From Candidatus Latescibacterota bacterium (lineage in GTDB: Bacteria > Latescibacterota > UBA2968): a stretch of 64,000 nucleotides of DNA. Position 1 is the stretch's first letter; every line of letters begins with the position of its first letter. The stretch spans positions 1,152,001 to 1,216,000 of the forward strand of contig OZ220741.1 of assembly GCA_965116885.1 (NCBI GenBank). Reading direction: 5' to 3'. The position numbers and the translations under genes are program-made. The notes under the pieces were generated by a model. The model did not search any database. It was not told where the DNA came from and saw only the letters and a list, made by a program, of their open reading frames with translations. Positions 1-58,917 of this stretch are shown here, in pieces.

Positions 1-148
1 AAATAGTCGCCGCGGCTGCATCGGCCGCATTGCCCCCCCTATCCAAAATCTCAACACCCGCTGCCACAGCACCTGCGCCGCCCGCAGCCACAACACCCGT
101 CTTGCTCTCAGCCTTCCATCCGATCTGTCCCACATCTATACCAGACAT
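1..148 (-). CDS. ggt: Gamma-glutamyltransferase family protein, N-terminal part (runs off window)
   Basis: Own translation from ATG at 148: MSGIDVGQIGWKAESKTGVVAAGGAGAVAAGVEILDRGGNAADAAAATI, with the GGNAxDAA motif of GGT; AAGGAG RBS upstream. Confidence 0.8.
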   Translation of the reverse strand, partial: MSGIDVGQIGWKAESKTGVVAAGGAGAVAAGVEILDRGGNAADAAAATI

Positions 149-2204: not shown

Positions 2205-3314
2205 ATGTCCATGATACCCAACACAGTACTCCCTATCACAATGATGGACTCAAAACTGGACTCTCTAACATTTGACCTGCCATCCGACCTGGAAGCGGGT
2301 GAACCGCCCGAAGCGCGTGGACTCAGCCGGGACCAGGTCCGGCTGATGGTCTCCTGGCAAAAAAATGATGCGATAGAACACATCGCATTTCGCGACTTAC
2401 CCGACGTGCTACAGGCGGGCGACGTCGTCGTCATCAACACCAGTGGCACGCGCAAAGCATCTCTGCCCATCATTAGGCCCGACGGAACAGAACTCAGACT
2501 ACATCTATCAACGCAACTGCACGCCGACATGTGGGCAGTTGAAATACGCCAACCCAATGGCATCGCAACGCAGCCTTTTTACCACGCACAGGCAGGCGAA
2601 ATCTTCACATTACCCGGCAGTGGATCAGCACAACTGCACGCCCCCTATCGCCCCGAACTGCGGCACAACCCCGACGCCCCTGTTCGCCTGTGGATTGCAA
2701 CCCTGAACCTGCCTTATGACCTGGACACCTACCTGGACATATACGGCATGCCCATCCGGTATGGCTATGTGCAAAACGACTGGCCCATCGACTATTATCA
2801 AACCGTATATGCAACAGAAGTGGGCAGCGCTGAAATGCCATCAGCAGGCAGGGCATTCACACCCAAAATCATCACAAAACTGGTCGCAAAAGGCATACAA
2901 ATTGCCCCCCTGATCTTACACACAGGCGTGGCGAGTCTGGAAGCTGATGAACCGCCTTACGAAGAATACTACCGCGTACCAGCCGAAACAGCGCGGGTAA
3001 TCAACAACGCGCGAAAAAACGGCGGACGGATCATCGCCGTTGGCACAACAGTCGTGCGCGCACTCGAAACCGTAGCCGACAAAACCGGACAAGTCTCTCA
3101 GGGCGAAGGGTGGACATCCCTGATAATCTCACCCGGTCACACCATGCAGACCGTAGATAGCTTACTCACCGGAATGCACGAACCGAGTGCCACACATCTA
3201 TCCATGCTCCAGGCATTGGCGGGATTAGATCACCTCAAACTGACTTATGAAGCCGCACTCAACAAAAATTATTTGTGGCACGAATTCGGCGATCTACATT
3301 TGATTTTACCCTGA
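2205..3314 (+). CDS. S-adenosylmethionine:tRNA ribosyltransferase-isomerase family protein (divergent QueA paralog)
   Basis: QueA architecture (FDLP, GDVVVIN, YQTVYA, IIAVGTTVVRALE) with altered motifs AEMPSAGRAF and YLWHEFGD. Confidence 0.8.
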   Translation: MSMIPNTVLPITMMDSKLDSLTFDLPSDLEAGEPPEARGLSRDQVRLMVSWQKNDAIEHIAFRDLPDVLQAGDVVVINTSGTRKASLPIIRPDGTELRLHLSTQLHADMWAVEIRQPNGIATQPFYHAQAGEIFTLPGSGSAQLHAPYRPELRHNPDAPVRLWIATLNLPYDLDTYLDIYGMPIRYGYVQNDWPIDYYQTVYATEVGSAEMPSAGRAFTPKIITKLVAKGIQIAPLILHTGVASLEADEPPYEEYYRVPAETARVINNARKNGGRIIAVGTTVVRALETVADKTGQVSQGEGWTSLIISPGHTMQTVDSLLTGMHEPSATHLSMLQALAGLDHLKLTYEAALNKNYLWHEFGDLHLILP

Positions 3315-3370
3315 ACACGCGGTATATTGAGCCACTACCGATAAGGAGAACCGTCAAAATAGGAAAACAA

Positions 3371-4447
3371 ATGTTCATAATTCACGAAATAGACGACAAC
3401 ATCCGCAGCGCCTATGGCATGACAGTCGCCGATATCACAGACAACGGACACCTGGACATCGTAGTCGGTTCTATGGGAACCTCGATGATCGCCCTGTACG
3501 AAGGACCTCATTTTGAAAAACAGATCATATCAGAAGCGCACCCCGGCACCATCGCACTATCGGTATTCGACGTCACGGGTAACGATCAAAAAGACATCAT
3601 TGCGAGCAGCGGATTTGGGCGAAGACAGCGGATCCCGCCGGAGTACTTGCACTGGTTTCAAGCACCTGCCTGGACACAGCACTTCATCGACTGGGTACCC
3701 TATTCACACCGCATTGCAATGGTAGAAGTCAACGGTCAACCCCTGCTATTTGTCGCAACACTGCAAGGACCGGGAAGCCAGATCAACGACTTTGATGCGC
3801 CGGGTGAACTGTGGTGTTACCGCATACCACAAGACCCGGTAAATGAACCGTGGGAAAAGCGATTAATCGACGGGCAGTTGAGACTCAACCACGGCCTGAG
3901 CGTATGCGACGTAGATGGCGATGGCCGCATGGACTTACTGCTCGGCACACGCGACGGCCTGATCTGGTTTGAGCCGCCCAAAGGGGACGGATTCGCGGAA
4001 AAATGGAACCGATGGACCATAAGCCCCCGCGAAAGCAGCGAAACCTTTGCCGTAGATATGGATGGGGATGGCATCAATGAAATACTCTCCATCGAACCCT
4101 GGCACGGCAATGAACTCGTCTGGTACAAAGCCACTGGCGACATCCGAACAGGCGCGTGGGAACGCCATCTAATCAGCGACAAACTCAACCGCGGACATTC
4201 GCTCTGGTGTGGCGACATAGACAGCGACAACGCACTGGAAGTCATCGCCGGATACAACGGACCCGGCACAGCCCTCCACATCTATCGCCCAGAGAATTTA
4301 GAAACAGACACCTGGCACATTGAACAAATCGACAACGGCATTGGCATGGGGCAAATGGCAATCGAAGACCTCAGCGGCAACGGCAAATTAGACATCGCCG
4401 CAAGCGGCATGTCCACGGGTAATGTGCGGTGGTATGAACAAATTTGA
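3371..4447 (+). CDS. FG-GAP/VCBS repeat beta-propeller protein
   Basis: Repeated DxDxDGxxD motifs (DVDGDGRMD, DMDGDGINE, DLSGNGKLD); start at ATG 3371. Confidence 0.75.
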   Translation: MFIIHEIDDNIRSAYGMTVADITDNGHLDIVVGSMGTSMIALYEGPHFEKQIISEAHPGTIALSVFDVTGNDQKDIIASSGFGRRQRIPPEYLHWFQAPAWTQHFIDWVPYSHRIAMVEVNGQPLLFVATLQGPGSQINDFDAPGELWCYRIPQDPVNEPWEKRLIDGQLRLNHGLSVCDVDGDGRMDLLLGTRDGLIWFEPPKGDGFAEKWNRWTISPRESSETFAVDMDGDGINEILSIEPWHGNELVWYKATGDIRTGAWERHLISDKLNRGHSLWCGDIDSDNALEVIAGYNGPGTALHIYRPENLETDTWHIEQIDNGIGMGQMAIEDLSGNGKLDIAASGMSTGNVRWYEQI

Positions 4448-4470: not shown

Positions 4471-4698
4471 ATGGACTATCAAGACATCATCACCATTGAA
4501 CCGGGCAAACGCAGTGGAAAACCGTGTATTCGCGGCATGCGGATCACCGTTTATGACGTACTTGACTATCTTGCCTCAGACATGTCTGTTGAAGAAATAT
4601 TGAGCGACTTTCCCGAACTTACACGAGAAGACATCCGCGCCTGCCTGGCATTCGCCGCAGACCGAGAGCGCAGGCTTATGTCTGTTTCTTCGACATGA
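4471..4698 (+). CDS. DUF433 family antitoxin
   Basis: ITIEPGKRSGKPCIRGMRITV...EEILSDFPEL signature. Confidence 0.9.
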   Translation: MDYQDIITIEPGKRSGKPCIRGMRITVYDVLDYLASDMSVEEILSDFPELTREDIRACLAFAADRERRLMSVSST

Positions 4699-5027
4699 GA
4701 TTCCTCTTCGATCAAAACCTCTCTTACAGATTGGTTACAGACTTGAAGGACCTGTATCCCAATTCTTCACACATCCGAGATATAGGCATGGAAGAAGCGG
4801 ATGACTCGGATATTTGGGATTATGCAACCCAAAATGGCTATGTCATTGTTTCCAAAGACTCGGACTTTCACCAAAAAAGCTTTCTATACGGTCATCCGCC
4901 CAAAGTCATTTGGCTTCGCGTAGGCAATTGTTCAACGAACACAATTGTATCTCTTCTTCGCACACAATACGATGCAATTTTGAGATTTGAGCAAAGCGAA
5001 ACCACATCTTTTTTTATTTTAGAATAA
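4695..5027 (+). CDS. DUF5615 PIN-like toxin
   Basis: MRFLFDQNLS...DSDIW...VSKDSDF; ATGA overlap with DUF433 gene. Confidence 0.85.
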   Translation: MRFLFDQNLSYRLVTDLKDLYPNSSHIRDIGMEEADDSDIWDYATQNGYVIVSKDSDFHQKSFLYGHPPKVIWLRVGNCSTNTIVSLLRTQYDAILRFEQSETTSFFILE

Positions 5028-5076
5028 AGAGTCTCATTATTCCTATCGCAACACTCAACTCACAAAGGAGAAAAAC

Positions 5077-5397
5077 ATGTTCTTCGAACTACGTCAATAT
5101 CGCACCCAACCTGGAAAACGCGAAGAATGGGTTGCATTTATGGAGAGTGAAATCATCCCATTTCAAATATCAAAAGGCATGGTCGTTATCGGCAGCTTTG
5201 TCGGCGAAGAAGAAGACGATCTCTACGTGTGGATCCGTCGATTTGAAAGCGAGGAACAAATGGAGCAACTCTACAAAGCCGTCTATGAAGACCCGTATTG
5301 GACCGATACGCTGAGCGATCAAGTAGGCGCATTGATCGACCGGGAGCGCATCGTCGTAACGCGCCTCAATGCAACACCGAGGTCTGTCATACAATAG
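5077..5397 (+). CDS. NIPSNAP family protein
   Basis: FFELRQYRTQPGK...VIGSF...YVWIRRF pattern; AAGGAG RBS. Confidence 0.85.
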   Translation: MFFELRQYRTQPGKREEWVAFMESEIIPFQISKGMVVIGSFVGEEEDDLYVWIRRFESEEQMEQLYKAVYEDPYWTDTLSDQVGALIDRERIVVTRLNATPRSVIQ

Positions 5398-5400
5398 GAC

Positions 5401-7182
5401 CTACCAAAAACTGACAAACCCCGTGAGTTCAAGACGGCGTTTCACGCGCTGGAGTTTGTGTGTTGAGCGGGGATATGTGGCATCGCAAAAAGCGATCAGC
5501 GCGTCCAGCAAACCGGCGAGTTCATCTCCCGCGCCGGACAGGCGTGGGAGAATCTTTTGTAAAATCTGATAATCAAAAGCATCTCGGGGCGTAAACGCTG
5601 GCGCATTTGAAGGCAACCCCTCAATCAAATCGAGCGCATACGCCATATAGATGAGAACCTCATCGCGGATGCGATAGCCAAAATGCAGATCCTCTTCCGC
5701 GAGCATCGCGTTAATCTCCTCCAACGGCTCATTCCACGCAACAACCTCATCGCGGTGGCGAACATCTTCCAACTGCCGATAGGGACGGTCAATAAGCGCT
5801 GCACCCAGAGCGCGCAGAGCCGTCGAATCAATCTGCACCTCGGGATCGTAATCCGACAACCCCAGATCAACGCGATCAAAAGCAACCGTATTCGCCCTGT
5901 CCAGCACCTTGGGACTAAACGCATACGTCGTCTCATCCATATTGACCGTACCTGCCACAAACAAATTGGGTGGAATGGGCAAACGCGAAGGCACATCTCC
6001 CATCTCATCCGTTGACACCACATCCCCACCCTGCGCCAATTCAATCGGATCTGTCGTCCACGCCCCATCGGGCGTGCGCCTCGCCGTCTCCATAACACTC
6101 AAAAAATCGGCAAAATAGTGTTCTACGCGAGCGAGATTCATCTCGTCCAAACACACAAAATAGGGACGGTCCGGATCGTCCTGTGCCTCGCACATCGCCT
6201 GAAGCAACGCACCCGGGCGAAACACCCCCGTGAGCAAATTTTCAAACCCGAGCAAATCGCGCACATCATTCCAATCCGGACGCACGGGAATCAGGCGATA
6301 CCCTCTCGCTCGCCCCTCATCGAGACCATTGATCGCCTCGGCCAAAAGCCGAATCACCGTACTCTTCCCCGTCCCGGATATCCCCGCCAAAATGAGAAAA
6401 GGTTTGGTCTTCAAACACAAATAGAGATTGAACAACATCCCCGCTTCAATATGGAAATTCTTCAGCGCCGTGAACCTGTAAAGATCGCACAAAAGCTCTG
6501 CCTCCACAGGCACAAGCGCATCTCGCACAACACCGGCTTCTGCGGGATCGGGCATATTGTACACGACACTGCTTTTAGAGGTCTGGTATCTCGCGCTTGT
6601 AAACACTGCATACAGCGCGTAGAGATCCCCTATCACTGTCTTAATATCCTCAACAAGAGTCGGCACCGCAGCTTCATCCGGCGTGAGAATCGAACCGACA
6701 AACAGCGAGCGATCAACCCCCTCGAGCCTGGATGGCGACCAGGGCACGGAACGACCGGGTGACGCCACAATAATATCACCCGCCAAACAGCGATATCCCT
6801 TGCGCGGCACCAAACCGCGAAACTTCTTGCGGTCAGCAATCGCCGTTTGCATCGCCTCGGCAGTCCACCAGCCAGAGTAAAAACCTATAGCCACGGCATT
6901 GTGATGCAAATAAATACCCAGTTGGGGCAACCGGGGAAACGCGCTCTTCTTCAGTTTGCGATCTACAAAATAGAGACACGCGTGATCCCGGGGCCGATCG
7001 GGATTGGAGCGAAAATTAGTCGTCGTGTAAACAGGTGAGATAACAGCGGTGAGGTCTGGATGCTGTTTCGTCAGAACGGGTTCGATCTCATCGCGCAGGA
7101 CTCGCATGCGCCCATGCAGATGCTCAGCACCGATGCGCGTGCCATTACAGGCGAGAAAATCGTTGGGAGAGAAAGAGAACAT
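5401..7182 (-). CDS. McrB-family AAA+ GTPase with N-terminal putative recognition domain
   Basis: GISGTGKS Walker A, VRPDW, LDEMNLARVEHYF, GTVNMDE (McrB NxxD), LQKILPRL; start uncertain (7182 preferred). Confidence 0.85.
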   Translation of the reverse strand: MFSFSPNDFLACNGTRIGAEHLHGRMRVLRDEIEPVLTKQHPDLTAVISPVYTTTNFRSNPDRPRDHACLYFVDRKLKKSAFPRLPQLGIYLHHNAVAIGFYSGWWTAEAMQTAIADRKKFRGLVPRKGYRCLAGDIIVASPGRSVPWSPSRLEGVDRSLFVGSILTPDEAAVPTLVEDIKTVIGDLYALYAVFTSARYQTSKSSVVYNMPDPAEAGVVRDALVPVEAELLCDLYRFTALKNFHIEAGMLFNLYLCLKTKPFLILAGISGTGKSTVIRLLAEAINGLDEGRARGYRLIPVRPDWNDVRDLLGFENLLTGVFRPGALLQAMCEAQDDPDRPYFVCLDEMNLARVEHYFADFLSVMETARRTPDGAWTTDPIELAQGGDVVSTDEMGDVPSRLPIPPNLFVAGTVNMDETTYAFSPKVLDRANTVAFDRVDLGLSDYDPEVQIDSTALRALGAALIDRPYRQLEDVRHRDEVVAWNEPLEEINAMLAEEDLHFGYRIRDEVLIYMAYALDLIEGLPSNAPAFTPRDAFDYQILQKILPRLSGAGDELAGLLDALIAFCDATYPRSTHKLQRVKRRLELTGFVSFW

Positions 7183-7385
7183 AAACGTGGTCAGTTGTTT
7201 GTTGTCTGTCGTGCGTACATTCGCACAACAGATGGACGATGTCAAGGACTTTCAATTTTTGGGATAAGCTCACTGTAAAAAGCATTCATCACCCCTATGA
7301 GTTTAACTTGATTTCAAAAAAAAATAAATTATATTGTGAATTTGTCACTATTGGACCATTGTGACGAGCGGATCGGTCTGGGCTG

Positions 7386-7536
7386 GCATTAGCCCAGACG
7401 TTTGCAATTATTGTGATGGTAAGGTGCAATCAGCGGTGGGCATCTCAACCCGGCCGTTGCCATTGGCGCGTTTTTAGCGGGAGCACAGGCAGTGGTAATC
7501 CTATTAAATACATTGTCTTTTGTCTGTCAATGGTGA
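7386..7536 (+). pseudogene. Aquaporin/MIP channel remnant
   Basis: 7423-7482 translates GAISGGHLNPAVAIGAFLAG (MIP signature); the preceding ALAQTFAIIVMV helix is in another frame; stop at 7534-7536. Confidence 0.75.
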
Positions 7537-7577
7537 TGGTGAAAAATATGTAACGCTACACAAAATCAATTCTTTAT

Positions 7578-7611
7578 AAAGCGCAGAGAACAGCATTGTT
7601 CTCTGCGCTTT
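7578..7611. terminator. Hairpin, probable bidirectional terminator (copy 1)
   Basis: AAAGCGCAGAGAACA-GCAT-TGTTCTCTGCGCTTT perfect stem. Confidence 0.7.
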
Positions 7612-7864
7612 GTATTTATACGGGAAATTTTATGGCCAGATAAGCGAATTTTTTTCCTGAGCGAGTGGGAATTCTCTTGACACTGCCACTTTGTTTACAT
7701 TTTTTAACATAATAGCATAAGAAATTCTACATCTTAAAATAAGAAAAAAAAAGGGGTTCGCCTTTTTCATGATAGGGATGGTGCATTCTGTAGCATTCCT
7801 TCGGTAACCGTTGCGGCTGCGTGATAGCGCAAACCGTGACACAACCACATTCTGGGAGGTAGAA

Positions 7865-8191
7865 ATGGCAAGCAGAAATATTATTGTCCTGGTCATCATC
7901 CTCGCGATTGTGCAGGCCCTGGCGCCCGACGCAATCCCTGGGGGACTTGTGCCACTCGCACTGGTGATACTGGGACTACTCTACGCGATAGTAGCGGTCG
8001 ATGCTGAGGACTCGACGGCCTACCTGGTCGTTGCGATTGCGGTCGGCGCTGCTGCAGGTGCGGATGTGTTGAGCAACATCCCAGGGGTAGGCGCTCACCT
8101 GGACGCCATTGTCGATCCGATCGCCACCGCCCTGTATGCCGGTGTCATAGCCATACTCGTGGAGAGGGGAATAAACCGCATCAAGAGTTAA
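7865..8191 (+). CDS. Small hydrophobic membrane protein, tandem paralog 1
   Basis: About 4 hydrophobic segments; GGGAGG RBS; near-identical motifs to the next two genes. Confidence 0.85.
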   Translation: MASRNIIVLVIILAIVQALAPDAIPGGLVPLALVILGLLYAIVAVDAEDSTAYLVVAIAVGAAAGADVLSNIPGVGAHLDAIVDPIATALYAGVIAILVERGINRIKS

Positions 8192-8261
8192 AGATGACTG
8201 GCGGATCAGCGACCTGTAGCCACAGGTCGTGACACACCAACCTATTCTGGGAGGAAGAAAT

Positions 8262-8588
8262 ATGGCAAGCAGGATTATTGTTAGCCTGATCGCTGCTCTG
8301 GCGATTATTCAGGGCCTGACGCCCGACGCGATCCCTGCGGGACTTGTGTCCCTCGCGCTGGTGATTCTGGGTCTGGCCTACGCGGTGGTAGCGGTCGGCG
8401 CTGATGACGAAACAGCCTACCTGATCGTCGCGCTTGCGGTCGGCGCTGCTGCAGGTGCGGATGCGTTGAGCGGCATCCCGCAGCTTGGCGCCCACCTGGA
8501 CGCCATCGTCGATCCAATCAGCACCGCTTTGTACGCCGGCGTCATAACCATACTCGTGAAGACACTAATAAATCACCTCAAGGGTTAA
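8262..8588 (+). CDS. Small hydrophobic membrane protein, tandem paralog 2
   Basis: Shares LALVILGL.Y, AVGAAAGAD.LS, LDAIVDPI..ALYAGVI with neighbours. Confidence 0.85.
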   Translation: MASRIIVSLIAALAIIQGLTPDAIPAGLVSLALVILGLAYAVVAVGADDETAYLIVALAVGAAAGADALSGIPQLGAHLDAIVDPISTALYAGVITILVKTLINHLKG

Positions 8589-8658
8589 AGATGACTGGTG
8601 GTTCACCTTGTAGCCCTATACGGCTACATCACAACTAACTTAATTCTGGGAGGATGAA

Positions 8659-9027
8659 ATGGTAGTCAGAATTATTGTTGGCCTGATCGTCGTTCTGGCC
8701 ATTATTCAGGGCCTGGTGGCCGGCGCGATTCCTGAAAATATTGTGTCGATCGCGCTGGTGATTCTGGGCCTGGTGTACGGGGGGATGGCGCTCGACGCTG
8801 AAGATGCGACATCCTTCCTGGTCGTTGCGATTGCGGTCGGTGCTGCTGCAGGTGCGGACGTATTGAGCAACATACAGGTAATAGGCGAGAAACTGGACGC
8901 CATCGTCGATCCGATCACTATCGCTCTGTATGCCGGCGTCATAACCGTATTCGCAAAGAGGGTATTAAATCGCGTCTTGGCGTCTGGTGATGGTGGCGGT
9001 GAAAGTGCTGGCGGCGGTGAAGAATAG
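8659..9027 (+). CDS. Small hydrophobic membrane protein, tandem paralog 3 (Gly/Glu C-terminal tail)
   Basis: Same motifs plus SGDGGGESAGGGEE tail. Confidence 0.85.
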   Translation: MVVRIIVGLIVVLAIIQGLVAGAIPENIVSIALVILGLVYGGMALDAEDATSFLVVAIAVGAAAGADVLSNIQVIGEKLDAIVDPITIALYAGVITVFAKRVLNRVLASGDGGGESAGGGEE

Positions 9028-9058
9028 TTAAAAGTTGCACAGAATTTTGTTATATTAC

Positions 9059-9092
9059 AAAGCGCAGAGAGCAATACCGTTCTCTGCGCTTT
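9059..9092. terminator. Hairpin, probable terminator (copy 2 of 7578-7611)
   Basis: AAAGCGCAGAGAGC-AATACC-GTTCTCTGCGCTTT. Confidence 0.7.
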
Positions 9093-9110
9093 CTTAATAC
9101 AGGAGACTTT

Positions 9111-9647
9111 ATGGGTATAGATACTCTGAGATCGGCAATGCCCGACTATGCGCGGGACATTCGGTTGAACCTGGGATCGGTCATATCTGCGTCGCGTCTC
9201 GACCCGGCAATGGCCTGGGGATCGGCACTTACAGCAGCACTGGTGTCAAAAAATGCACAGGTGATTCAGAACATCACCGAAGACGCACAGGCTGTTATGG
9301 ACGAACAACACATAAAAGCCGTGAAATCTGCCGCCGCCATGATGAGCATGACCAATGTGTGGTATAAATTCACCGATCTCATTCGGGACAACGAAGTAAA
9401 AAAACAGCCTCCCAAATTGCGAATGAATGCCGTGCTGACCCACGGCGGTGTCGATCGCGCATTGTTCGAAGCGTGGAGCCTCTCGGCAAGTGTGGTAAAT
9501 GCGTGTGGTATCTGCGTCAACGCACACGCATCGCAATTGAACAAACTGGGCATTGACGCCCAACAAATCGCAGACATCGCCCGCATTGCCACCGTCATAA
9601 AATCAGTGGCTGATACGCTATCCTTTGAGGCACTATCCAATGGTTAA
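9111..9647 (+). CDS. ahpD: Alkyl hydroperoxide reductase AhpD / carboxymuconolactone decarboxylase family
   Basis: PDYARDIRLNL, MSMTNVWY, LRMN, FEAWSL..S.VNACGICVNAH (CxxC). Confidence 0.85.
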   Translation: MGIDTLRSAMPDYARDIRLNLGSVISASRLDPAMAWGSALTAALVSKNAQVIQNITEDAQAVMDEQHIKAVKSAAAMMSMTNVWYKFTDLIRDNEVKKQPPKLRMNAVLTHGGVDRALFEAWSLSASVVNACGICVNAHASQLNKLGIDAQQIADIARIATVIKSVADTLSFEALSNG

Positions 9648-9649
9648 AT

Positions 9650-10894
9650 ATGTCTATACAAAAACGCGCAAAATACGGTGCCGAAGCATTTGATGGACTC
9701 GCGGGCAGCTTGCCCCAACCCTTTCCGCGCACCATGGGTCCAAACTGTCAGACATACCTTCAGGAAGTCGTAACATCGGGCCTGCAATGCGACATGGTTC
9801 GGCGATTTGAAGCCGCTTTCGAAAGCGAAATGGGCATCAAACACTGCATCGGCACGCCCGGATGCACCGCAGCACTCAACATCCTCGCAGCCGCGCTCAG
9901 TCTCGAACCCGGCGATGAAATCATCGTATCGCCCATCACCGACTACGGCACGGTCATGGGCCTGTTAAAAGAAAACTACATCCCGGTCTTCCCCGACACC
10001 GAACCCGGCACACCGCTCATCAGCGCCCAAACCATCGCACCGTGTATCACCAACCGCACGCGAGCCATCCTCGCCGTCCACATAACCGGCCTCATCTGCG
10101 ACATGGACCCCATCCACGCCCTGGGGAAAAAACACGGCCTGACCGTCATTGAAGACGTATGCCAGGCCGTATTTGGCACGTACAAAGGCCGCCTTGCGGG
10201 CACCCTCGGCGATGTCGCCGCCTTCTCATTCGACTCCGAAAAAACACTCGGCTCTGACGTTGGCGGCTGTGTCATTACCGACGACGATGAACTCGCCGAA
10301 CAAATTCGGTTCGTCGGTCAAAGCAGAGGCGGACAAATGGTTGAAGGACTGGGGCGCGTCCACGCCGTAAATGGATACGCCCTCCGCATGACCCAATCGA
10401 CCGCAGCCATCACCCTTGCACAACTCGAAATCATCCGCCCGACCATTGCGCATATCGACCGCATGATTCGCCTCATCACCGACAAACTCGCCGAAATTCC
10501 CGGCATCATCCCACTATCCATACCAGATTACATGGAAACCTATTCCTGCTGGATGGCCGGATTCAGCATCGACCCCAATGCCTTTACATGCGACGCCGAA
10601 TCCTTTGCACAGCAAGTCGCCGAAGCGGGACTCACTGGAGCGGGACTCGGCAAATACTACCTCATGCCCGCCGCACTGCCCTTTTTAACGGACAAAGCCG
10701 AAAAACACCTCTATCCCTTCTCCATACCCCCGGCCTCCCACACCTACACATACAACGCAAACACCTGTCCCAATGCCCGGGACTTTCTCGACAATTTCAT
10801 CCGCTGGACCACCATCTGCGAAAAATACCAACCCCAACACTGCGACCTCGTCGCCCAAATAGTCGCCACCGTCGCCGACCAGAACCGAGTTTAA
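9650..10894 (+). CDS. DegT/DnrJ/EryC1/StrS PLP-dependent aminotransferase
   Basis: GCTAAL, PGDEII, VIEDVCQA, FSFDSEK (PLP lysine). Confidence 0.85.
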   Translation: MSIQKRAKYGAEAFDGLAGSLPQPFPRTMGPNCQTYLQEVVTSGLQCDMVRRFEAAFESEMGIKHCIGTPGCTAALNILAAALSLEPGDEIIVSPITDYGTVMGLLKENYIPVFPDTEPGTPLISAQTIAPCITNRTRAILAVHITGLICDMDPIHALGKKHGLTVIEDVCQAVFGTYKGRLAGTLGDVAAFSFDSEKTLGSDVGGCVITDDDELAEQIRFVGQSRGGQMVEGLGRVHAVNGYALRMTQSTAAITLAQLEIIRPTIAHIDRMIRLITDKLAEIPGIIPLSIPDYMETYSCWMAGFSIDPNAFTCDAESFAQQVAEAGLTGAGLGKYYLMPAALPFLTDKAEKHLYPFSIPPASHTYTYNANTCPNARDFLDNFIRWTTICEKYQPQHCDLVAQIVATVADQNRV

Positions 10895-10900
10895 TACACA

Positions 10901-11659
10901 ATGCCACACACCTGTTCTCTAAACACCCGGTATTATCGCGCCCTGCCCATCGACGCACCCGGTTACGAGTCCATCAGCCTCGAATTACCCATTGCAAAAA
11001 CCGCCCTGATCGGCCTGCACTGCTGGAACATCGGCTGTCCAGATGGTCCGGCAATCGCCCCCAACTACTGCGTGGGCATGGGCTGGCCGCAAGCAACCGC
11101 CGAGGCTGCGCGCATCATGGCCGAAGTCATACGCCCCGCCATGGACCTCGCCCGCAAAATCGGAATGCCCGTCTGCCATGTCGAAACCGATTGGATGGCG
11201 GATCAGTATCCCCACATCCCCTCCCGCCGCAAAGAAACAGCACAACCAGAACCCGCAAACCGCGCACAAACCATGCGAAACCGCGCGCACGGCCCGAACT
11301 ACCTCACAAAATCGCCGCTTGCAAACATGAAACGGGCCGCCATCGTCTCCCCAATACAAGACGAACCCCTCGTCTTTTACACCGACGCACTCGACACCTA
11401 CCTCAAAACGCGCGACATCACAACCCTCATCTACACGGGATTTGCAACCGACATGTGCATCCTCGGTGCCGAAGGCGGAGCCAGAGACATGCTCGCCCGC
11501 GGTTATCAATGCATCCTCATACGCGACGGAACCGTCGGCGTGGAAACCCCCAGCACCTTTCCCGAAAAATTGGCTACCCGTTACGGCACGCACATCTTCG
11601 AGTGGCAACTGGGATACAGCACCACCTTTCGAGATTTCATCCAAGCGTTTTCAGCCTGA
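10901..11659 (+). CDS. Isochorismatase-family cysteine hydrolase
   Basis: LIYTGFATDMCI catalytic motif; ARGY..ILIRDGT. Confidence 0.75.
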   Translation: MPHTCSLNTRYYRALPIDAPGYESISLELPIAKTALIGLHCWNIGCPDGPAIAPNYCVGMGWPQATAEAARIMAEVIRPAMDLARKIGMPVCHVETDWMADQYPHIPSRRKETAQPEPANRAQTMRNRAHGPNYLTKSPLANMKRAAIVSPIQDEPLVFYTDALDTYLKTRDITTLIYTGFATDMCILGAEGGARDMLARGYQCILIRDGTVGVETPSTFPEKLATRYGTHIFEWQLGYSTTFRDFIQAFSA

Positions 11660-11673
11660 CACTGGAGAGAAAC

Positions 11674-12693
11674 ATGGCCCTCACAATATGTCCGTGGAAA
11701 TACAACAAAACCTGGGTCTATTCCATCACATACGACGAAGCCCTTGTTGACCTGCACCAATTCGCAATCCCCATCCACGAAGAACACGGCATCCCGGGAC
11801 ATGTAGAAGTCGTCGTCGGACAACTGGGCGAAACGCGCAATCTCGGCAACTCCAGCTACAATGGCTATCGCCACATGAACGCCGACGAACTCAAAGACCT
11901 CCTCGCCCGGGGCTGGGGGATTGGCAATCACTCCTGGAGCCATGAACTCATACAGCCCGACATGGTTGACCTGGAAATTGGCCGCGCAAAAGACGTACTC
12001 GAAGCCGCCATTGACGCACCCGTCGATCTCTACTGCGCCCCCGGCAACAATTCCAACATGTCAGACCACGTCCTCAAAGCCTGCCGCAAATACGGCTACC
12101 TCGGCGCCATGAGCCTGACCGACGCCCTCAACCGCCCAAACACCCCGCTCTTCTGGATCAACCGCACGGCATTGCACGAACAGTATTACGCGCCATTCTT
12201 CAGCGAATACGACCCATTCCGCAACATCCGCCATGCACAAGCGCAAAACGGCTGGATCATCGATTACTGCCATTGCCCATTGGAAAAACCCATCCACCCC
12301 AACAAAGACTGCTCGCATCCACAACTCAGAAAAAGATTTGAAACCATCCTCGCAGAAGGCGGAGACAAAGTCTGGTGTGCCGTACCCGAAGAAGTGCTCT
12401 TCTACCACCAGACCAGACGCCACACACAAATCGAAACCATCTCCGACACAAAAATCCAAAAGCGCTACCGCCTCCACCTCAACAACCTGAGCGACCGCGT
12501 CACCTGCCGCACGCTCACCCTCCACGCCGACGTACCCGCCCCCTATTGTCGCCATCCCAACGTATGGATCAACGGACAATCCCACCCCGCACATCTGATA
12601 GAACCGAGAAAATTGCAAATCACGATCACTGTTACAGACGGCATGGAACTCGTATTTCAAGACCCGGGCGCAATTAGTCAAGCCTCACCCTGA
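11674..12693 (+). CDS. Polysaccharide deacetylase (NodB-like) family protein
   Basis: SITYDE, MNADELKDLLARGWGIGNHSWSH; start at ATG 11674 behind GGAGAG. Confidence 0.8.
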   Translation: MALTICPWKYNKTWVYSITYDEALVDLHQFAIPIHEEHGIPGHVEVVVGQLGETRNLGNSSYNGYRHMNADELKDLLARGWGIGNHSWSHELIQPDMVDLEIGRAKDVLEAAIDAPVDLYCAPGNNSNMSDHVLKACRKYGYLGAMSLTDALNRPNTPLFWINRTALHEQYYAPFFSEYDPFRNIRHAQAQNGWIIDYCHCPLEKPIHPNKDCSHPQLRKRFETILAEGGDKVWCAVPEEVLFYHQTRRHTQIETISDTKIQKRYRLHLNNLSDRVTCRTLTLHADVPAPYCRHPNVWINGQSHPAHLIEPRKLQITITVTDGMELVFQDPGAISQASP

Positions 12694-13531
12694 CCCCTCT
12701 CTCCCGAAGCACCGGAACATGCTTGTTCAGCGATGTCTCGCTCAGAGGATTATCCCTCAAATCGATCAAACTGTTTTCGCCACGCAACTCAGCATTCTCC
12801 ACCAGAGGCGATAAATCCGAAACATCGCAATCCCAACCATGCACCCTTCGCAGCCTGGGCAAACCCGACAGAGGCGAAAGATCCGAGATCGCATTGTTAT
12901 TCAGAGCCAATCCCCCCAACTCGGTCAAACCCGACAGCGGAGAAATATCCCAGATCAGATTATTACTCACATCCAGCCACCTCAACGCGGTCATATCCGA
13001 CAGAGGCGAGAGATCCGAAACATCGTTGGTATAGAGATGCAGCGTTCTCATCCTGGTCAAACCCGACAGCGGTGAAAGATCCGAAATATAGGAATTCCCA
13101 CTAATATCCAGTACTCTCAGTTCTGTCAAATTCGACAGCGGCGATATATCAGCTATTGTATTGCGAAAAAGGTTCAACTCCGTCAGCTTGATCAAACCCG
13201 ACAACGGAGAGAGATCCGAAATACCATTGCTATTGACGCGACCGCCATTCGTCAATACATAGCCGAGATTCAGCACCGTCAGTTCGGTAGCGTATTCAAT
13301 CCCCGTCAAATCGCGAACCCTTGAATTCGGTGCTTCAAGGCGCGTCAACGTCGCCATCTCAGCCGCAGTAATCGCCTCACCCCTCGCCTTATTCAGAGAA
13401 TCCTCAATCACCGCGCGCAGGTAGATATCCGGAATCGTTATACCCTCACCCTTCTTATGAGCACCTGCGTCGCATTCACCATAAATGACGAGACAGACAC
13501 CGAGAATAATCAAGAGATACCGGTAGATCAT
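12674..13531 (-). CDS. Exported internalin-like leucine-rich repeat protein
   Basis: Signal-like N-terminus, IPD..LRAVIE cap, about 7 repeats of N.ISDLSPLSGLT.L..L.L; GGAGGA RBS. Confidence 0.9.
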   Translation of the reverse strand: MIYRYLLIILGVCLVIYGECDAGAHKKGEGITIPDIYLRAVIEDSLNKARGEAITAAEMATLTRLEAPNSRVRDLTGIEYATELTVLNLGYVLTNGGRVNSNGISDLSPLSGLIKLTELNLFRNTIADISPLSNLTELRVLDISGNSYISDLSPLSGLTRMRTLHLYTNDVSDLSPLSDMTALRWLDVSNNLIWDISPLSGLTELGGLALNNNAISDLSPLSGLPRLRRVHGWDCDVSDLSPLVENAELRGENSLIDLRDNPLSETSLNKHVPVLRERGVRVRLD

Positions 13532-13553
13532 GGAAACAGTCCTCCAATAAGCG

Positions 13554-15383
13554 TCATATAACCCCATACAACGGCCCGCCCGACGCCCCGAGTGCCTCTA
13601 CCTTTTTTGTAATATTGGGATCTTCAACAAGCGGGGGCGCGTGGTGGGGCTTGTGGCGCGCATCAACAATCAGCGACCCGTTACAGCCCCAGTGTTTGTA
13701 TTCAATAAAGCTATCAACACCGTAAATATCATGCGAGGGATTGGAACGCGTAAACGCAACCCAGAGAAAATTATTGAGCGTGCGCGAACTAAACGCGCTG
13801 TCATCGACAATAAGGACAAGCGGCAACCCATCAAGGGACTGAGACACGAGCGCCTCGGCAAGACGAACTGCATCCTTACCCCCCTGATCGGCGTCTTTGA
13901 AATCGGGACCCTCAATAGCTGCGATACCGGGCAGGGCAATCGCGGGATTCTTAAAACCATCAGGCAGAGCCAGATCGCCCGGAATCTCGCGCCACAAATC
14001 GCGTCTCTTCGCACCGGCTGCGGCGATCACGACCTTGGAACCCTCATTAAATCCCGTACCCGAATAATCCAACGTATCAATCGTCGTACGGGTTTGAAAG
14101 TGGAGATCGCGCCGCCAATCCACCCGTTCGAGAACGTGTATAAAATAAGCGCCGATATCGTGCGTATTCAGATGGGGATTATCTTCCCCCGCACAAATAA
14201 AAAGGTATTTCGCCAAAGAGCACGCGCCAAAACCGAGCAATGCATTGGCCAGCGTGAGAATCTCCTGCGGCTGTCGCTCGCGGTAGGGCACATAGCGTTC
14301 CGAACCAATGGCAATGAGCAAAGGGTGAACACCCGCCGCATCCACAGCATTAATAGACTTAAGACCGGGAATCTCAACGGGAACCATCGGACCAGTAATC
14401 TCGTGAATAAGCAAACCAAATGCCGTATCTTCCTGCGGGGGACGACCCACAACAGTAAAGGGATAAATAGCGTCTCTCCTGTGCCAAACATCTTCCACCT
14501 GGAGAACGGGAAACTCATGCGCCAGACTATAATACCCCAGATGATCGCCAAACGGACCCTCGGGTTTGGTCTCTCCTGGATGCACGGTACCCGTGATAAC
14601 AAAATCTGCCTCAGTAGAAATGACGTGGGCATTCCTGCGGGCATAGCGAAACCGGCGCCCGGCCAGACCCCCGGCAAAAATAATTTCGGACAAACCCTCG
14701 GGCAAAGGCATAACAGCAGAAAACGTATGCGCGGGCGGTCCCCCGATAAAAATACTCACGCGCAAAGGCTCCCCGCGCTTGAGCGCATTCGCATGGTGAA
14801 TCCCAATATCGCGACGGATCTGGTAGTGCAGACCAACCTCTTCGTTCTGCATATACTCATTACCCGAAAGCTGGATGCGATACATCCCCAAATTGGCATT
14901 CATAACACCCGGCTGATCGGGATCCTCTGTATAAACCTGGGGCAAAAGAACAAACGGACCGCCATCGTCGGGCCAGCATTGAATCTGAGGAAGCTGATCA
15001 ATAGTCGTACTGTTTTTGAACACCGCGCCAAAACGCACCTTTCTCGGCAACGTATTAAATGCAATCCTCGCAATCCCCATTGCGCGCCAGGGCGCGCGAA
15101 GAAACGCAACCGGATCTGCTTTGGCTTCGACAAGGCGTTGTACCCATCTCAGAGTTGACCGAAACAGAAAACGCGAGCGATCGAGCGTGCCAAAAAGATT
15201 GGAAACCGCCGGAAACGGACTATCTTTCACATTCGCATAATAAACAGCCGGACCATTAGCCTGAAAGACGCGGCGATGGATCTCCGCCATCTCCAGATAG
15301 GGATCCACCTCCTGGTCAATGCGGATGAGATGACCATTGCGATCGAGATCGTCAACGCACTGTTTGAGGGACTTGTATCGCAT
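13554..15383 (-). CDS. UbiD-family (prFMN-dependent) decarboxylase
   Basis: NLGMYRIQ, EGPFGDHLGYY, VVGRPPQED, DTLDYSG. Confidence 0.9.
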   Translation of the reverse strand: MRYKSLKQCVDDLDRNGHLIRIDQEVDPYLEMAEIHRRVFQANGPAVYYANVKDSPFPAVSNLFGTLDRSRFLFRSTLRWVQRLVEAKADPVAFLRAPWRAMGIARIAFNTLPRKVRFGAVFKNSTTIDQLPQIQCWPDDGGPFVLLPQVYTEDPDQPGVMNANLGMYRIQLSGNEYMQNEEVGLHYQIRRDIGIHHANALKRGEPLRVSIFIGGPPAHTFSAVMPLPEGLSEIIFAGGLAGRRFRYARRNAHVISTEADFVITGTVHPGETKPEGPFGDHLGYYSLAHEFPVLQVEDVWHRRDAIYPFTVVGRPPQEDTAFGLLIHEITGPMVPVEIPGLKSINAVDAAGVHPLLIAIGSERYVPYRERQPQEILTLANALLGFGACSLAKYLFICAGEDNPHLNTHDIGAYFIHVLERVDWRRDLHFQTRTTIDTLDYSGTGFNEGSKVVIAAAGAKRRDLWREIPGDLALPDGFKNPAIALPGIAAIEGPDFKDADQGGKDAVRLAEALVSQSLDGLPLVLIVDDSAFSSRTLNNFLWVAFTRSNPSHDIYGVDSFIEYKHWGCNGSLIVDARHKPHHAPPLVEDPNITKKVEALGASGGPLYGVI

Positions 15384-43715: not shown

Positions 43716-45140
43716 ATGATTTCCATCAGCCCGATTTTTCGAAAGAACAGTATTTTTGTTTGTCTGCTTATACTCTTCTCACTCTCTGTCCATTCCACAC
43801 TCTTCAGCCTTTCCAAGAACGCCCAGGATTCCTCTGTTGCGCGATTTGACTCAGCTAATATGGATGAAGTTGTGATCCCCCTGGAGCGTGTACCTTTAAG
43901 CTCACAAGCATTATCGAGATTCAGGTCATCATCAATTGACTTTCACGATCACGATTGGATAAGTCGAAAACCGCTCGAGGAGGGTCTGCGAGGATTTCCA
44001 CCGGGAATGACCATAGAATTCTATGGTGTATTCGAGTTGAGTGCCCTACAGTTGTGCATTCTTTATTATCAAGAAGAGACCGATCGAAAACTCTGGGAAC
44101 CGTATGACTTAGGAGTACCTGTAGATAGCAAAGTATCCTTTGTGAATGGCCGGGATCGGAATGGAAATGCTGTTTTCCTTTTTGATACCAACAACAATGA
44201 AGACTTCTCCGATGAACATGCGATATATCCAGAGAACTTCGGTACAGTATTTCGTCTGCTGAGCTACATTCTACCCTGGAGACTTACTTATGGGCAGAAG
44301 GCAAATGCCACCGTTGAATTTGAATATAACGATGGTAGAATCGCCAAAACCCAAAAGGTGGGCGTGGAGGTTCATAGATATACGCAATATGTGAAAAAGC
44401 AGAACGATCCAACCTTCCCAAAATTCAGGGGAAGCGTGACTGAATACAGAAAAGGACGAGTGAAAATAGATGGTCAATTATACGACCTGGCGATCTACAA
44501 CAAAGGACGTTTCGCGACCTACTCTACCAAAATTTATAACAGAATACTATGGGATCTCAATCACGATGGCATATTCGGGAATGAACGCGAATCAGCGGAA
44601 TATTACGACGCCGACAAACCCTTTAATATCGGTGGTACCACATTTGAAGTTAAAAGCATCTCAGCCTCTGGTGATGAAATTATCCTCAGAAAATCAGATG
44701 TCTCCGTCCCAACAAAGGCTGAGATCAAACGAGGTTCTGTGGCACCGGATTTTGCAGTTACCGATATAAATGGAAAGAATCTTCAACTTTCAAATTTCAG
44801 GGGTAAATACGTTTTGTTGGACTTCTGGTACACCGGGTGCGGGCCATGTATCAAAGATACCCCCAGATTGAAAGCACTATCTGAAAAATTCGACCGGGAT
44901 AATTTCGAGATTATCGGCGTTAGTGCCGATATTAGAAGAGACAAAGTCGAGAATTATGTGGAGAAGTCTCACATTGGATGGCCCCAAATCCTGGACACTA
45001 TAGACAACAATAACAAGGTGTCAAAAATGTATAACATTGGAGGCCATCCGCACTATGTCCTGATTGACCGGGAAGGGAAGGTTATGATGACGAATCGTTC
45101 TTTTCGAGTCACCCTCACTCTCATCTCTCCACTCCTTTAA
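43716..45140 (+). CDS. Exported TlpA-family thiol-disulfide oxidoreductase with large N-terminal domain
   Basis: Signal peptide; APDF.VTD..GK...LS.FRGKYVLLDFWYTGCGPC. Confidence 0.85.
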   Translation: MISISPIFRKNSIFVCLLILFSLSVHSTLFSLSKNAQDSSVARFDSANMDEVVIPLERVPLSSQALSRFRSSSIDFHDHDWISRKPLEEGLRGFPPGMTIEFYGVFELSALQLCILYYQEETDRKLWEPYDLGVPVDSKVSFVNGRDRNGNAVFLFDTNNNEDFSDEHAIYPENFGTVFRLLSYILPWRLTYGQKANATVEFEYNDGRIAKTQKVGVEVHRYTQYVKKQNDPTFPKFRGSVTEYRKGRVKIDGQLYDLAIYNKGRFATYSTKIYNRILWDLNHDGIFGNERESAEYYDADKPFNIGGTTFEVKSISASGDEIILRKSDVSVPTKAEIKRGSVAPDFAVTDINGKNLQLSNFRGKYVLLDFWYTGCGPCIKDTPRLKALSEKFDRDNFEIIGVSADIRRDKVENYVEKSHIGWPQILDTIDNNNKVSKMYNIGGHPHYVLIDREGKVMMTNRSFRVTLTLISPLL

Positions 45141-45184
45141 GACAAGCTTCGTCATGACTGCCTGAGACAGCCAGAGAGAATAAA

Positions 45185-47641: not shown

Positions 47642-47688
47642 GCTACAAGGTCGCCCGAATTCTCTCATTCTTTATGCAAGGAAATAAA

Positions 47689-50055: not shown

Positions 50056-50629
50056 ACGATCAGAAATAGAAAACGACGTACAATTGATCCACATGATCAA
50101 AGCCGGCGACAAAAGCGCGTTTGGCAAACTCTACCATCTGCACCAGAATCGCGTACGCGCCATTGTCGGGCGATATGTGCAGGACCGCGACGAAACCGAA
50201 GACCTGATGCAGGTGGTATTCATGAAAGTCTTCCAGAGCCTGCGCCATTTTCGCGGCGAATCGGCATTCACAACCTATCTGACGCGCATTGCCATCAACG
50301 TCGGGCGGTCACACCTTCGGTCCCGGCTATCCCGAAAAAACGGCATGGAAACAGCAGCGCGAGACATGCCCGAACCCATTACCCTGACAACGCCAGAAGA
50401 TAGCATCATAAAAAAAGAACGCCATCAACTCTTAACACAGGGCCTGCGCACATTGCCTAAAGTGCAACAACGCGCAATGTGGCTTCGCTACATAAAAGAA
50501 CTGTCCTACCGCGAAATCGTATGGGAAATGCAAGCACCCCTCGGCTCCGTGAAAATCTGGCTCCACCGCGGGCGCCATCAGCTAAAACGCGCGCTGGAAA
50601 AACAAGAGGTCGGAGGTTGGGCGGGCTAA
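50048..50629 (+). CDS. ECF sigma factor embedded in permease array
   Basis: GDKSAFGKLY, EDLMQVVF, FRGESAFTTYLTRIA, LSYREI...GSVKIWLHRGR. Confidence 0.9.
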   Translation: MNKRSEIENDVQLIHMIKAGDKSAFGKLYHLHQNRVRAIVGRYVQDRDETEDLMQVVFMKVFQSLRHFRGESAFTTYLTRIAINVGRSHLRSRLSRKNGMETAARDMPEPITLTTPEDSIIKKERHQLLTQGLRTLPKVQQRAMWLRYIKELSYREIVWEMQAPLGSVKIWLHRGRHQLKRALEKQEVGGWAG

Positions 50630-50657
50630 CTGCTGGGACGTCACAGGAGATAAGACC

Positions 50658-53159: not shown

Positions 53160-53188
53160 TCAGTTCCCGTCCTGCAAAGGAGAAACCC

Positions 53189-55513: not shown

Positions 55514-55549
55514 GTCATATACTTGTTTTTTGCCCCTCGCCTGAGCATA

Positions 55550-55873
55550 CTAAACAGCAACAACTCGCTGTTGTCCCTGTCTATCCTTTGAGGGAATAAT
55601 GCGGATCTCAATATCGCGATTTAGTCGGTTGAGAAATGTCATTAATCGCGCAACGCTGTAATGATTAAAATTCCCGTTCTTTAGTCGAGATATTTCAGGT
55701 TGCTTCACGCCTAAAATATTCGCTGCCTCTGTCTGCGTCAGCTTCCGCTCTTCTATAATCTGAAACACTTCAAATCCAAGCGTTGCCTTGATAAATAATT
55801 CCTCCGCATCTGGCAAGTCCAAGTCCCTGAACACATTGCCCGAACTCTTCTCAAATTTAATTTTTCTGTTCAT
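55550..55873 (-). CDS. XRE HTH antitoxin (HigA-like)
   Basis: SSGNVF.DL, LTQ.EAA.ILGV.QP.IS.L, YSV.RLM.FL. Confidence 0.88.
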   Translation of the reverse strand: MNRKIKFEKSSGNVFRDLDLPDAEELFIKATLGFEVFQIIEERKLTQTEAANILGVKQPEISRLKNGNFNHYSVARLMTFLNRLNRDIEIRIIPSKDRQGQQRVVAV

Positions 55874-56231: not shown

Positions 56232-56236
56232 AAAGA

Positions 56237-56265
56237 ATTATAGCCAAATGGATATATATTGTCAA
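56237..56265 (-). promoter_or_regulatory. Consensus sigma-70 promoter of TA operon with overlapping palindrome
   Basis: TTGACA-17nt-TATAAT exactly; TATATCC-ATTT-GGCTATA imperfect palindrome. Confidence 0.85.
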
Positions 56266-56338
56266 ATATCTTAACCTTTGTATGGAACACTAAGCATGTC
56301 CTGAAAAGGAGGTATTACAATGTGCCTGTTTTTGTTTT

Positions 56339-56460: not shown

Positions 56461-56543
56461 TACTATTTTCATACGTCCACTCTACCTGAATGATGAATGG
56501 CTGACCGCTGACCAATAAAGGAGAGCGAACAGGAGATAACGTC

Positions 56544-58895: not shown

Positions 58896-58917
58896 GGAAC
58901 AATGACAGGAGCTTCTC

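Follow-up and report, generated by a model that had tools for sequence, protein, structure and literature searches.

Introduction

Membrane proteolipids and pores that are small and oligomeric are already known as a kind of protein. The c subunits of ATP synthase and the V-type proteolipids (ATP-synt_C) are very small, very hydrophobic proteins with a Gly/Ala-rich helix inside an oligomer of parallel, side-by-side subunits; they carry conserved carboxylates, and tandem paralogues are possible. AtpI (UncI; ATP-synt_I, PF03899), a four-helix membrane protein of about 110 to 130 amino acids (aa), helps assemble c-rings. Orai, the DxxE motif of MCU and CorA-type loops represent small oligomeric cation channels with acidic rings at the pore mouth, and holins and prophage "moron" (superinfection-exclusion) proteins are small and multi-helix, with a charged C terminus. 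Here we describe three tandem genes, A, B and C, at positions 7865 to 9027 of a 64,000-nucleotide (nt) stretch of the genome of a Candidatus Latescibacterota bacterium (contig OZ220741.1, positions 1,152,001 to 1,216,000; hereafter the window). Their products appear to work most like c-subunit-type proteolipids, and the searches reported below placed them neither there nor among AtpI proteins, holins, defence proteins or small transporters.

The proteins share with the ATP-synt_C family their small size, their hydrophobicity, a Gly/Ala-rich helix that is predicted to lie inside a parallel oligomer, carboxylates and an arrangement as tandem paralogues. This likeness would be one of mode of working rather than of homology. 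None of the 38 family members examined has a Pfam match; each protein is predicted to have four helices of 15 to 32 residues; and in the AlphaFold2 (AF2) model the carboxylates lie at helix ends and in loops, not in the middle of the membrane. The triplet (C1:1159865-1161027 in genome coordinates) has no atp operon context, lying about 325 kb from the AtpI/AtpZ locus (C1:1486387-1486880), and the family gene is accessory. Four copies of A are predicted to assemble head to tail, an arrangement that may or may not close into a ring.

AtpI resembles the family proteins in being a four-helix membrane protein of similar length, but hmmscan gave no match, and a canonical AtpI gene (25.3 bits, above the cut-off) with an adjacent AtpZ gene lies elsewhere in the genome. 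The likeness to holins and morons extends to one family lineage that occupies a prophage accessory slot and to a patchy, cross-phylum distribution. On the other hand, there was no PHROGs, Pfam or PADLOC match and no endolysin adjoining the gene in the window, at six distant loci, in the prophage or at ten further loci, and most family copies are chromosomal with stable, lineage-specific synteny. As to the acidic-ring cation channels, if the family proteins form a ring, the acids at the two ends of its innermost helix would line up as rings of carboxylates. We take this only as an analogy: no fold match beyond generic helical hairpins was found, and the acids are not conserved family-wide.

Our favoured reading, which is still tentative, is that the triplet encodes a small, accessory and so far undescribed membrane protein whose copies join head to tail to build a proteolipid-like ring, with helix 3 on the inner side. 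To our knowledge, sponge symbionts, with which this family appears to be associated, are unculturable, and most of the "symbiosis factors" proposed for them are eukaryote-like repeat proteins. A compact, confidently modelled membrane oligomer without known relatives would be a different sort of candidate. A structure together with a flux assay could establish these proteins as small channels or proteolipids of a new family or as a new kind of barrier to phages at the membrane, and a length of 108 residues should make expression, purification and imaging easy.

Three tandem genes under constraint

The genes and their ribosome-binding sites are as follows.

7865-8191, + strand: gene A (P0001), 108 aa, predicted four-helix hydrophobic protein (open reading frame [ORF] listing and translation)
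8262-8588, + strand: gene B (P0003), 108 aa, 72% identity to A
8659-9027, + strand: gene C (P0002), 122 aa, 60% identity to A
7854-7859, + strand: GGGAGG ribosome-binding site of gene A, 5 nt 5' of the ATG (direct-repeat family D2)
8249-8254, + strand: GGGAGG ribosome-binding site of gene B, 7 nt 5' of the ATG (repeat family D2)
8648-8653, + strand: GGGAGG ribosome-binding site of gene C, 5 nt 5' of the ATG (repeat family D2)

The original prediction, made from the letters of this DNA, described three tandem, very hydrophobic paralogues of 108 to 122 aa with invariant motifs, an acidic loop and a strong ribosome-binding site before each gene, and in these respects it was borne out. The ORFs encode 108, 108 and 122 aa, with a grand average of hydropathy (GRAVY) of 1.19 to 1.36, and GGGAGG stands 5 to 7 nt ahead of each ATG. 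The motifs AVGAAAGAD, LDAIVDP and ALYAGV are present in all three proteins; in the acidic loop, A and C have DAED and B has GADDE. Altogether, 57 of the 108 positions of A are identical in A, B and C. The proteins contain no Cys or Trp, and all of their Lys and Arg residues are at the N and C termini.

At the DNA level the triplet is a 397-nt tandem repeat whose copies are 75 to 81% identical, and A, B and C are the only family copies in the whole 5.56-Mb genome. Gene C has an extra Gly-rich and acidic C-terminal tail, ASGDGGGESAGGGEE, which is partly encoded by an 18-nt tandem repeat (D3, 8987-9021); the tail varies among relatives, in which the length of paralogue C ranges from 116 to 124 aa. 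The G+C content is 0.53 to 0.61 across the genes and 0.51 to 0.60 in the flanks, and we therefore rejected a foreign-DNA signature for the cassette.

In a maximum-likelihood tree, the copies from this genus formed three orthologous groups (support of 97/94 for A, 100/99 for B and 96/88 for C), indicating that the triplication is older than the species of the genus. All copies of the genus fell in one clade (support of 90/78, not starred). The ratio of nonsynonymous to synonymous substitution (dN/dS, Nei-Gojobori), calculated against orthologues from cleanly alignable pairs, was 0.13 to 0.34 for A, 0.14 to 0.46 for B and 0.37 for C (two pairs); the comparisons of C with loci L004, L006, L007 and L008 were left out because of indels or a wrong paralogue. 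Because of the 397-nt repeat, the recurring orthologous groups and dN/dS values of 0.13 to 0.46, the triplet is not a product of chance. The three genes are real and under constraint.

No match to a named family

We then searched for relatives. The family is rare: an exhaustive HMMER search found 75 representatives at an E value of ≤0.001 among 1.84 billion, and from it we drew a family alignment of 38 members (A2). A word-indexed search returned 153 proteins from 637 candidates, and those that carried a source name were called "hypothetical protein."

Searches of A, B and C against Pfam (hmmscan, E ≤ 10) and NCBIfam gave nothing near the threshold. When the 38 members were searched, Pfam (hmmscan, E ≤ 1) gave no significant match, the best among the top 25 of 33 weak families being TagF_N (E value of 0.0031, one member). 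The same members had no significant match in PHROGs (best E value of 0.0067, an unnamed phrog, one member) or in PADLOC (best E value of 0.0042, SAVED_TM, one member). The small multidrug resistance (SMR) and Fluc/CrcB families were not among the Pfam or NCBIfam results, in which the weak NCBIfam rows were an ammonium transporter and an MrpC-like protein (E values of 1 to 2.6).

Structural comparisons led to the same result. A profile search of the PDB sequences found no match, and Foldseek with the AF2 model against the PDB gave none at an E value of ≤0.001 (best, 3.9). In a VIA-align comparison with 48,161 chains, the highest Z score was 7.7 over 63 residues, the matches being two-helix hairpins that covered residues 1 to 45 or 46 to 108; such hairpin matches are generic and are under the level that the tool takes as meaningful for helical proteins. 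The ESM Atlas, searched over all clusters and over the named clusters only, returned just unnamed clusters, from bacteria and Nanobdellota archaea. The earlier statement that no named family can be assigned thus agrees with these results, which contain no confident match to a characterized family. The family itself is new, being without a name, a matching solved fold or an annotated relative in the libraries searched.

Predicted fold and conserved residues

The AF2 model of A, built with the A2 alignment, has a predicted local distance difference test (pLDDT) score of 95.4 and a predicted template modeling (pTM) score of 0.84. It places helices at residues 2 to 19, 28 to 44, 51 to 65 (plus 68 to 71) and 76 to 107, and helix 3 has the small-residue-rich sequence AIAVGAAAGA. 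The acidic residues at 46 to 49 are in the loop between helices 2 and 3, residue 67 is just after helix 3, and residues 80 and 84 are in the amphipathic start of helix 4. The positive-inside rule would put the two termini and the DAED loop on the cytoplasmic side, with D22, D67, D80 and D84 facing outward.

The columns that are conserved throughout the family are small residues: G37 (38 of 38 members), G76 (37), A14 (36) and A59 (35). The acidic positions, in contrast, are typical of the core bacterial subfamily only. This weakens the original prediction that conserved Asp residues could bind ions: across the family, these residues are kept in 22 to 25 of the 38 members, and three of them are absent from a prophage-borne copy (described below). 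An ion role can therefore not be general to the family.

It is also conceivable that the proteins are abundant structural or accessory membrane proteolipids without transport, acting as a scaffold, in membrane packing or as an assembly factor for another membrane complex. The family-wide columns are small packing residues rather than charged ones, helix 3 is so tightly packed in the prediction that it may leave no pore, and the depth of the RNA contigs over the triplet is high. One distant member is, moreover, labelled "ATP synthase protein I" by JGI. This label was not supported when tested, and we rejected an AtpI identity: hhalign of A2 against 23 AtpI proteins from the same phylum gave a probability of 0.25% and an E value of 0.25 over 24 columns, and the genome's own AtpI and AtpZ are elsewhere. 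In none of the lineages examined do nearby genes encode a partner complex, and with 4 of the 21 genomes in this genus lacking the gene, an essential structural role fits poorly. We regard a purely structural role as plausible yet unlikely.

Predicted self-association of paralogue A

We predicted complexes of four copies of paralogue A only, with its own alignment A2, in three runs and with three unrelated proteins as controls. The interface score ipSAE was 0.84, 0.81 and 0.80 in the three runs, compared to 0.00 for the best control. The predictions contained 129 to 134 contacts, with a contact agreement of at least 96% between the runs and a partner pLDDT of at least 84. In the calibration of the tool with two copies, 20 of the 30 proteins whose solved structures are pairs attained this mark, as did 1 of the 23 whose solved structures are single chains; these counts hold only roughly here because our own alignment and four copies were used.

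In the predicted geometry, one copy contacts two others through different faces, and helix 3 is part of both. The first face comprises residues 3 to 11 of helix 1, residues 51 to 66 of helix 3, the loop at 68 to 73 and residues 83 and 86. The second comprises residues 27 to 34 of helix 2, residues 51 to 61 of helix 3 and residues 87 to 108 of helix 4. Helix 3 contacts helix 3 of the neighbouring copy in parallel and in register, and contacts between helix 3 and helix 4 of the neighbour are antiparallel. This predicted geometry belongs to a head-to-tail oligomer, either cyclic or helical, in which the Gly/Ala-rich helix 3 is the innermost part. A hetero-oligomeric ring or channel, or an abundant structural proteolipid, had been proposed from the outset; the prediction, at an ipSAE of 0.81 compared to 0.00 for the controls, backs a self-oligomer of A, and a hetero-oligomer of the three paralogues, a closed ring, a pore and ion binding would be further steps beyond it.

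The same model bears on whether helix 1 could be a cleaved Sec signal peptide, leaving a mature three-helix protein in the periplasm or outside the cell. The N terminus, MASR followed by about 15 hydrophobic residues and then Q-A-L-A/P-D, has a superficial likeness to one. However, A and B have a Pro after the putative cleavage site, B lacks an A-x-A, helix 1 is confidently modelled in the bundle with residues 3 to 11 in the predicted interface, and the remaining 85 residues are still strongly hydrophobic. We consider a signal peptide extremely unlikely.

RNA contigs over the triplet

The stretch was present in 20 of the 24 public sequencing runs listed, 12 of the 24 being labelled "sponge metagenome." Six of the runs that contain it are RNA libraries, from four independent sponge metatranscriptome studies. 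We compared the contigs of four RNA runs (X15, X16, X19 and X20), one per study, over positions 4500 to 12500; these runs were chosen because they contain the stretch, and parts of the flanks that no RNA contig covered were not taken as silent. In X15, a single contig (7744-9413) covered the triplet at a depth of 149.5, compared to 4 to 20.4 for the listed flank contigs. The corresponding depths were 46.7, 19.7 and 36.1 versus 3.9 to 6.3 in X16, 17 to 35.6 versus 3.6 to 11.7 in X19, and 11.5 and 17.7 versus 2.8 to 4.5 in X20. Most flanking contigs across the RNA runs had a depth of 2.8 to 12.

The uneven depth speaks against mere carry-over of DNA. RNA contigs from all four studies cover the triplet, mostly more deeply than its flanks, and an absence of expression, which together with an absence of any predicted oligomer had been named at the start as evidence against the proposal, was not what we observed.

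Two further features concern the putative transcript of the triplet.

7744-7864, + strand: putative 5' leader of the triplet transcript, where RNA contigs start (fold z score of -2.3)
8210-8229, + strand: stem-loop with an 8-bp stem in the intercistronic spacer of A and B (-22.3 kcal/mol and a z score of -2.9 when 8189-8264 is folded)

Contigs start at 7744 (X15), 7749 (X16) and 7760 (X20), which hints weakly at a transcript start near 7744 to 7760, beside an A9 run, contig ends being no proof of a start. In the spacer between B and C, the matching stem-loop was not significant (z score of -1.1). A scan for consensus promoters and terminators found nothing convincing for the triplet operon, and an Rfam scan of positions 7000 to 9700 gave no match.

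Two contigs had an odd structure. One from X19 fuses gene A straight to gene C and skips 794 nt (8088-8883), and in one from X20, 34 nt of the spacer between B and C (8608-8643) are swapped for 72 other letters. They may come from strain variants with fewer copies or from collapse of the repeat during assembly.

A proposed ring-like assembly

In the reading that we favour, A, B and C would be paralogous subunits, each with four short hydrophobic helices and with both ends cytoplasmic by the positive-inside rule. The subunits would insert into the membrane and pack side by side in the same orientation, head to tail. Helix 3 would be innermost, and helices 1, 2 and 4 would build the two lateral faces, so that a proteolipid-like ring or arc might form. 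In the core subfamily, carboxylates would then lie at both ends of helix 3, with D46, E48 and D49 on one side of the membrane and D67, D80 and D84 on the other. Given this clustering, our preferred mechanism would be a cation-binding or cation-conducting oligomer. Within sponges, a promoter of its own would drive strong transcription of the operon, strong terminator hairpins would mark its two borders, and the gene would be an accessory one that moves between sponge-associated bacteria of several phyla.

Several points weigh against this proposal. Generic properties of hydrophobic helical proteins could be enough to give them high joint scores, and the unrelated controls were perhaps not membrane proteins. 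The four-copy model leaves ring closure and the number of subunits undefined, and helices 1 to 3, with just 15 to 18 residues, are short as membrane spans. Conservation of the acidic residues among the 38 diverse members is partial (D46 in 24, D49 in 23, D67 in 22, D80 in 25 and D84 in 24; position 48 is Glu in 22 and Asp in 8 more), and the prophage-borne copy is without D67, D80 and D84. The incomplete conservation would weaken a cation role. Contig depth is one value per contig and a poor measure of expression; an upstream bin in X16 (5034-5300) averages 35.1, and a contig of depth 29.2 in X19 spans 8883 to 10686, across downstream genes. Among the loci examined, there was no neighbour common to different lineages and none that points to a pathway, and neither experiment nor homology anchors any function.

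Patchy distribution across genomes

The gene is accessory and patchy and occurs in at least three phyla. Within the Latescibacterota, 61 of 168 genomes had a family match: 16 of 30 in family f1, 16 of 22 in f2, 28 of 76 in f4 and 0 of 39 in eleven other families. Among the 21 genomes of this genus, including the source genome G000, 14 had three copies, 2 had two copies, 1 had a dubious match only (E value of 7.4e-4, within a 585-aa frame) and 4 had none; three of these last four are single-contig genomes that are 97 to 98% complete. The triplication is confined, within the phylum, to this genus, and the other genera have one copy. Since most lineages have a single copy, the ancestral state would have been a homo-oligomer, if an oligomer at all.

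Outside the phylum, named metagenome-assembled genome (MAG) records contained relatives with 54 to 57% identity in Gammaproteobacteria, Acidobacteriota and Bryobacterales. In the acidobacterial order sampled, 26 of 101 genomes were positive, as were 20 of 101 in the gammaproteobacterial order, where 9 of the 20 had a tandem pair. The gammaproteobacterial pairs are an amplification independent of the triplication in this genus, and tandem copies that arose independently in two lineages fit an advantage of dosage or of hetero-oligomers. Two divergent or partial second family copies were also found outside the phylum (G169:C1:768710-769003, E value of 1e-12; G171:C1:1014582-1014770, E value of 3e-19).

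The labels of the runs and the names of the MAGs suggest a specificity for sponges. It is a doubtful extension of the reading above that a new ring-forming class of membrane proteolipids or cation pores is shared horizontally, partly through prophages, among unrelated sponge symbionts, is among their more strongly transcribed genes and was amplified independently in two phyla as a habitat-specific factor for symbiosis or persistence.

Genomic neighbours and a prophage-borne copy

The neighbours of the gene differed between lineages. In this genus they are an AAA_5 protein, a CMD/AhpD-like gene and a DegT aminotransferase, and in other Latescibacterota they are RecG and an ankyrin-repeat protein. 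At the gammaproteobacterial loci, the gene lies between ispG and acs in four of the four scanned (L012, L093, L096 and L097). At the acidobacterial loci, a divergent pyrroloquinoline quinone (PQQ) quinohemoprotein dehydrogenase adjoins the gene in four of seven (L085, L086, L087 and L088), with a cytochrome c domain in three of those four, and transposase-type genes are nearby in two of the seven. We read the adjacency to the PQQ dehydrogenase and to ispG and acs as lineage synteny. The PQQ neighbour may also be a lead to periplasmic metal-dependent dehydrogenases.

In two Bryobacterales MAGs with an identical protein (L014, 3492-12057, and L015), the gene is present as a single copy within a Mu/P2-like, myovirus-type prophage. 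It lies directly 3' of a late transcriptional activator, in the same orientation, with a CI-like repressor and a Mu Gam-like gene on one side and gpD-like, gpU-like and sheath tail genes on the other; the prophage also encodes a head-closure/tube protein. This context was limited to those 2 related MAGs of 9 acidobacterial loci and was found at none of the Latescibacterota or gammaproteobacterial loci examined. The prophage location shows one route of mobility.

Such a location raises the question of whether the gene is a mobile, prophage-type moron that protects against phages, for example by blocking DNA entry, and that high phage pressure has spread among sponge symbionts. The position after the late activator, the patchy spread over at least three phyla, the transposase-type genes near two of the seven further acidobacterial loci and the constitutive transcription indicated by the RNA contigs are all consistent with this. 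Yet the prophage context occurs in one lineage only of those examined, the site between ispG and acs is a stable chromosomal one in the gammaproteobacterial order, and the G+C content of the genes is the same as that of the flanks. In addition to the PADLOC and PHROGs results, tblastn against 50,697 phage records and against a plasmid collection gave no match, searches that find close relatives only, and IMG/VR gave no locus with close-relative (A1) patterns, by which phage carriage is not excluded. A moron is, in our view, improbable.

A holin-like or other membrane permeabilizer, serving lysis, release or regulated leakage, was weighed on the same contexts. The protein resembles holins in its size, in having several hydrophobic helices and in its charged C terminus, and one lineage is in a prophage. 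On the other side, none of the 38 members matched a holin family in Pfam or PHROGs, no endolysin adjoins the gene in any context examined, and a steady, high presence in RNA libraries from healthy holobionts, together with three constitutively arranged copies, fits a lethal protein poorly. We judge this explanation very unlikely. Compared with these alternatives, the head-to-tail assembly described above is the reading that we prefer.

Eukaryote-like repeat proteins, which are typical of host-associated bacteria, are encoded near family members: leucine-rich repeat (LRR) and FG-GAP proteins in the window (12674-13567, - strand, and 3275-4447, + strand) and ankyrin repeats at L010/L011 (4355-5377).

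Two copies of a hairpin and a decayed aquaporin gene

The triplet of the window is flanked by two copies of one palindrome.

7573-7614, no strand assigned: upstream palindromic hairpin, 42 nt, 18-nt arms and 4-nt loop (inverted-repeat pairs I1/I2; -28.3 kcal/mol, z score of -9.4)
9056-9097, no strand assigned: downstream copy of the palindromic hairpin, just upstream of the CMD/AhpD-like gene (-24.4 kcal/mol, z score of -8.3)

These two copies beside the triplet are the only occurrences of the pattern in the 5.56-Mb genome. The upstream hairpin looks like a bidirectional terminator and was probably the terminator of a former aquaporin gene, now decayed; the downstream one is likely the terminator of the triplet. 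The remnant of the aquaporin gene is at 7423-7518 (more widely, about 7390-7570) and translates to GAISGGHLNPAVAIGA, which includes an NPA motif.

For comparison, we used four loci of the same genus, from three genomes without a family match and one with only the dubious match. In all four, one copy of the hairpin lies just 5' of the CMD/AhpD-like gene. Two of the four genomes (G087 and G081) have an intact gene for a MIP aquaporin, of 217 or 222 aa, that ends at the hairpin, and G087 also retains the AAA_5 gene upstream, like the window. The remnant DNA is 78 to 90% identical to the intact genes at the same place in two triplet-less loci of the genus (L080 and L081). The order in the window is therefore AAA_5 gene, decayed aquaporin, hairpin, putative promoter with A, B and C, hairpin and CMD gene. 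This suggests that the terminator hairpin was duplicated upon insertion of the cassette or that recombination took place at the hairpin. Such a footprint, with a duplicated hairpin, a decayed aquaporin gene and an intact one in triplet-less relatives, shows how accessory genes settle in symbiont genomes.

We rejected the triplet as a functional stand-in for the adjacent aquaporin. The source genome has another intact MIP gene (C1:231359-232027), and other triplet-bearing genomes also retain a MIP match elsewhere (in G082, split into two partial matches), so that no functional replacement is implied.

Two further observations concern the window itself. The conserved upstream neighbour in the genus, at 5401-7245 (- strand), has a product of 614 aa that contains an ATPase domain of the AAA_5 (dynein-related/McrB-like) type. 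Positions 43716-63683 hold large ORFs on the + strand, one of 474 aa followed by seven of about 780 to 830 aa, broken by a 193-aa ORF.

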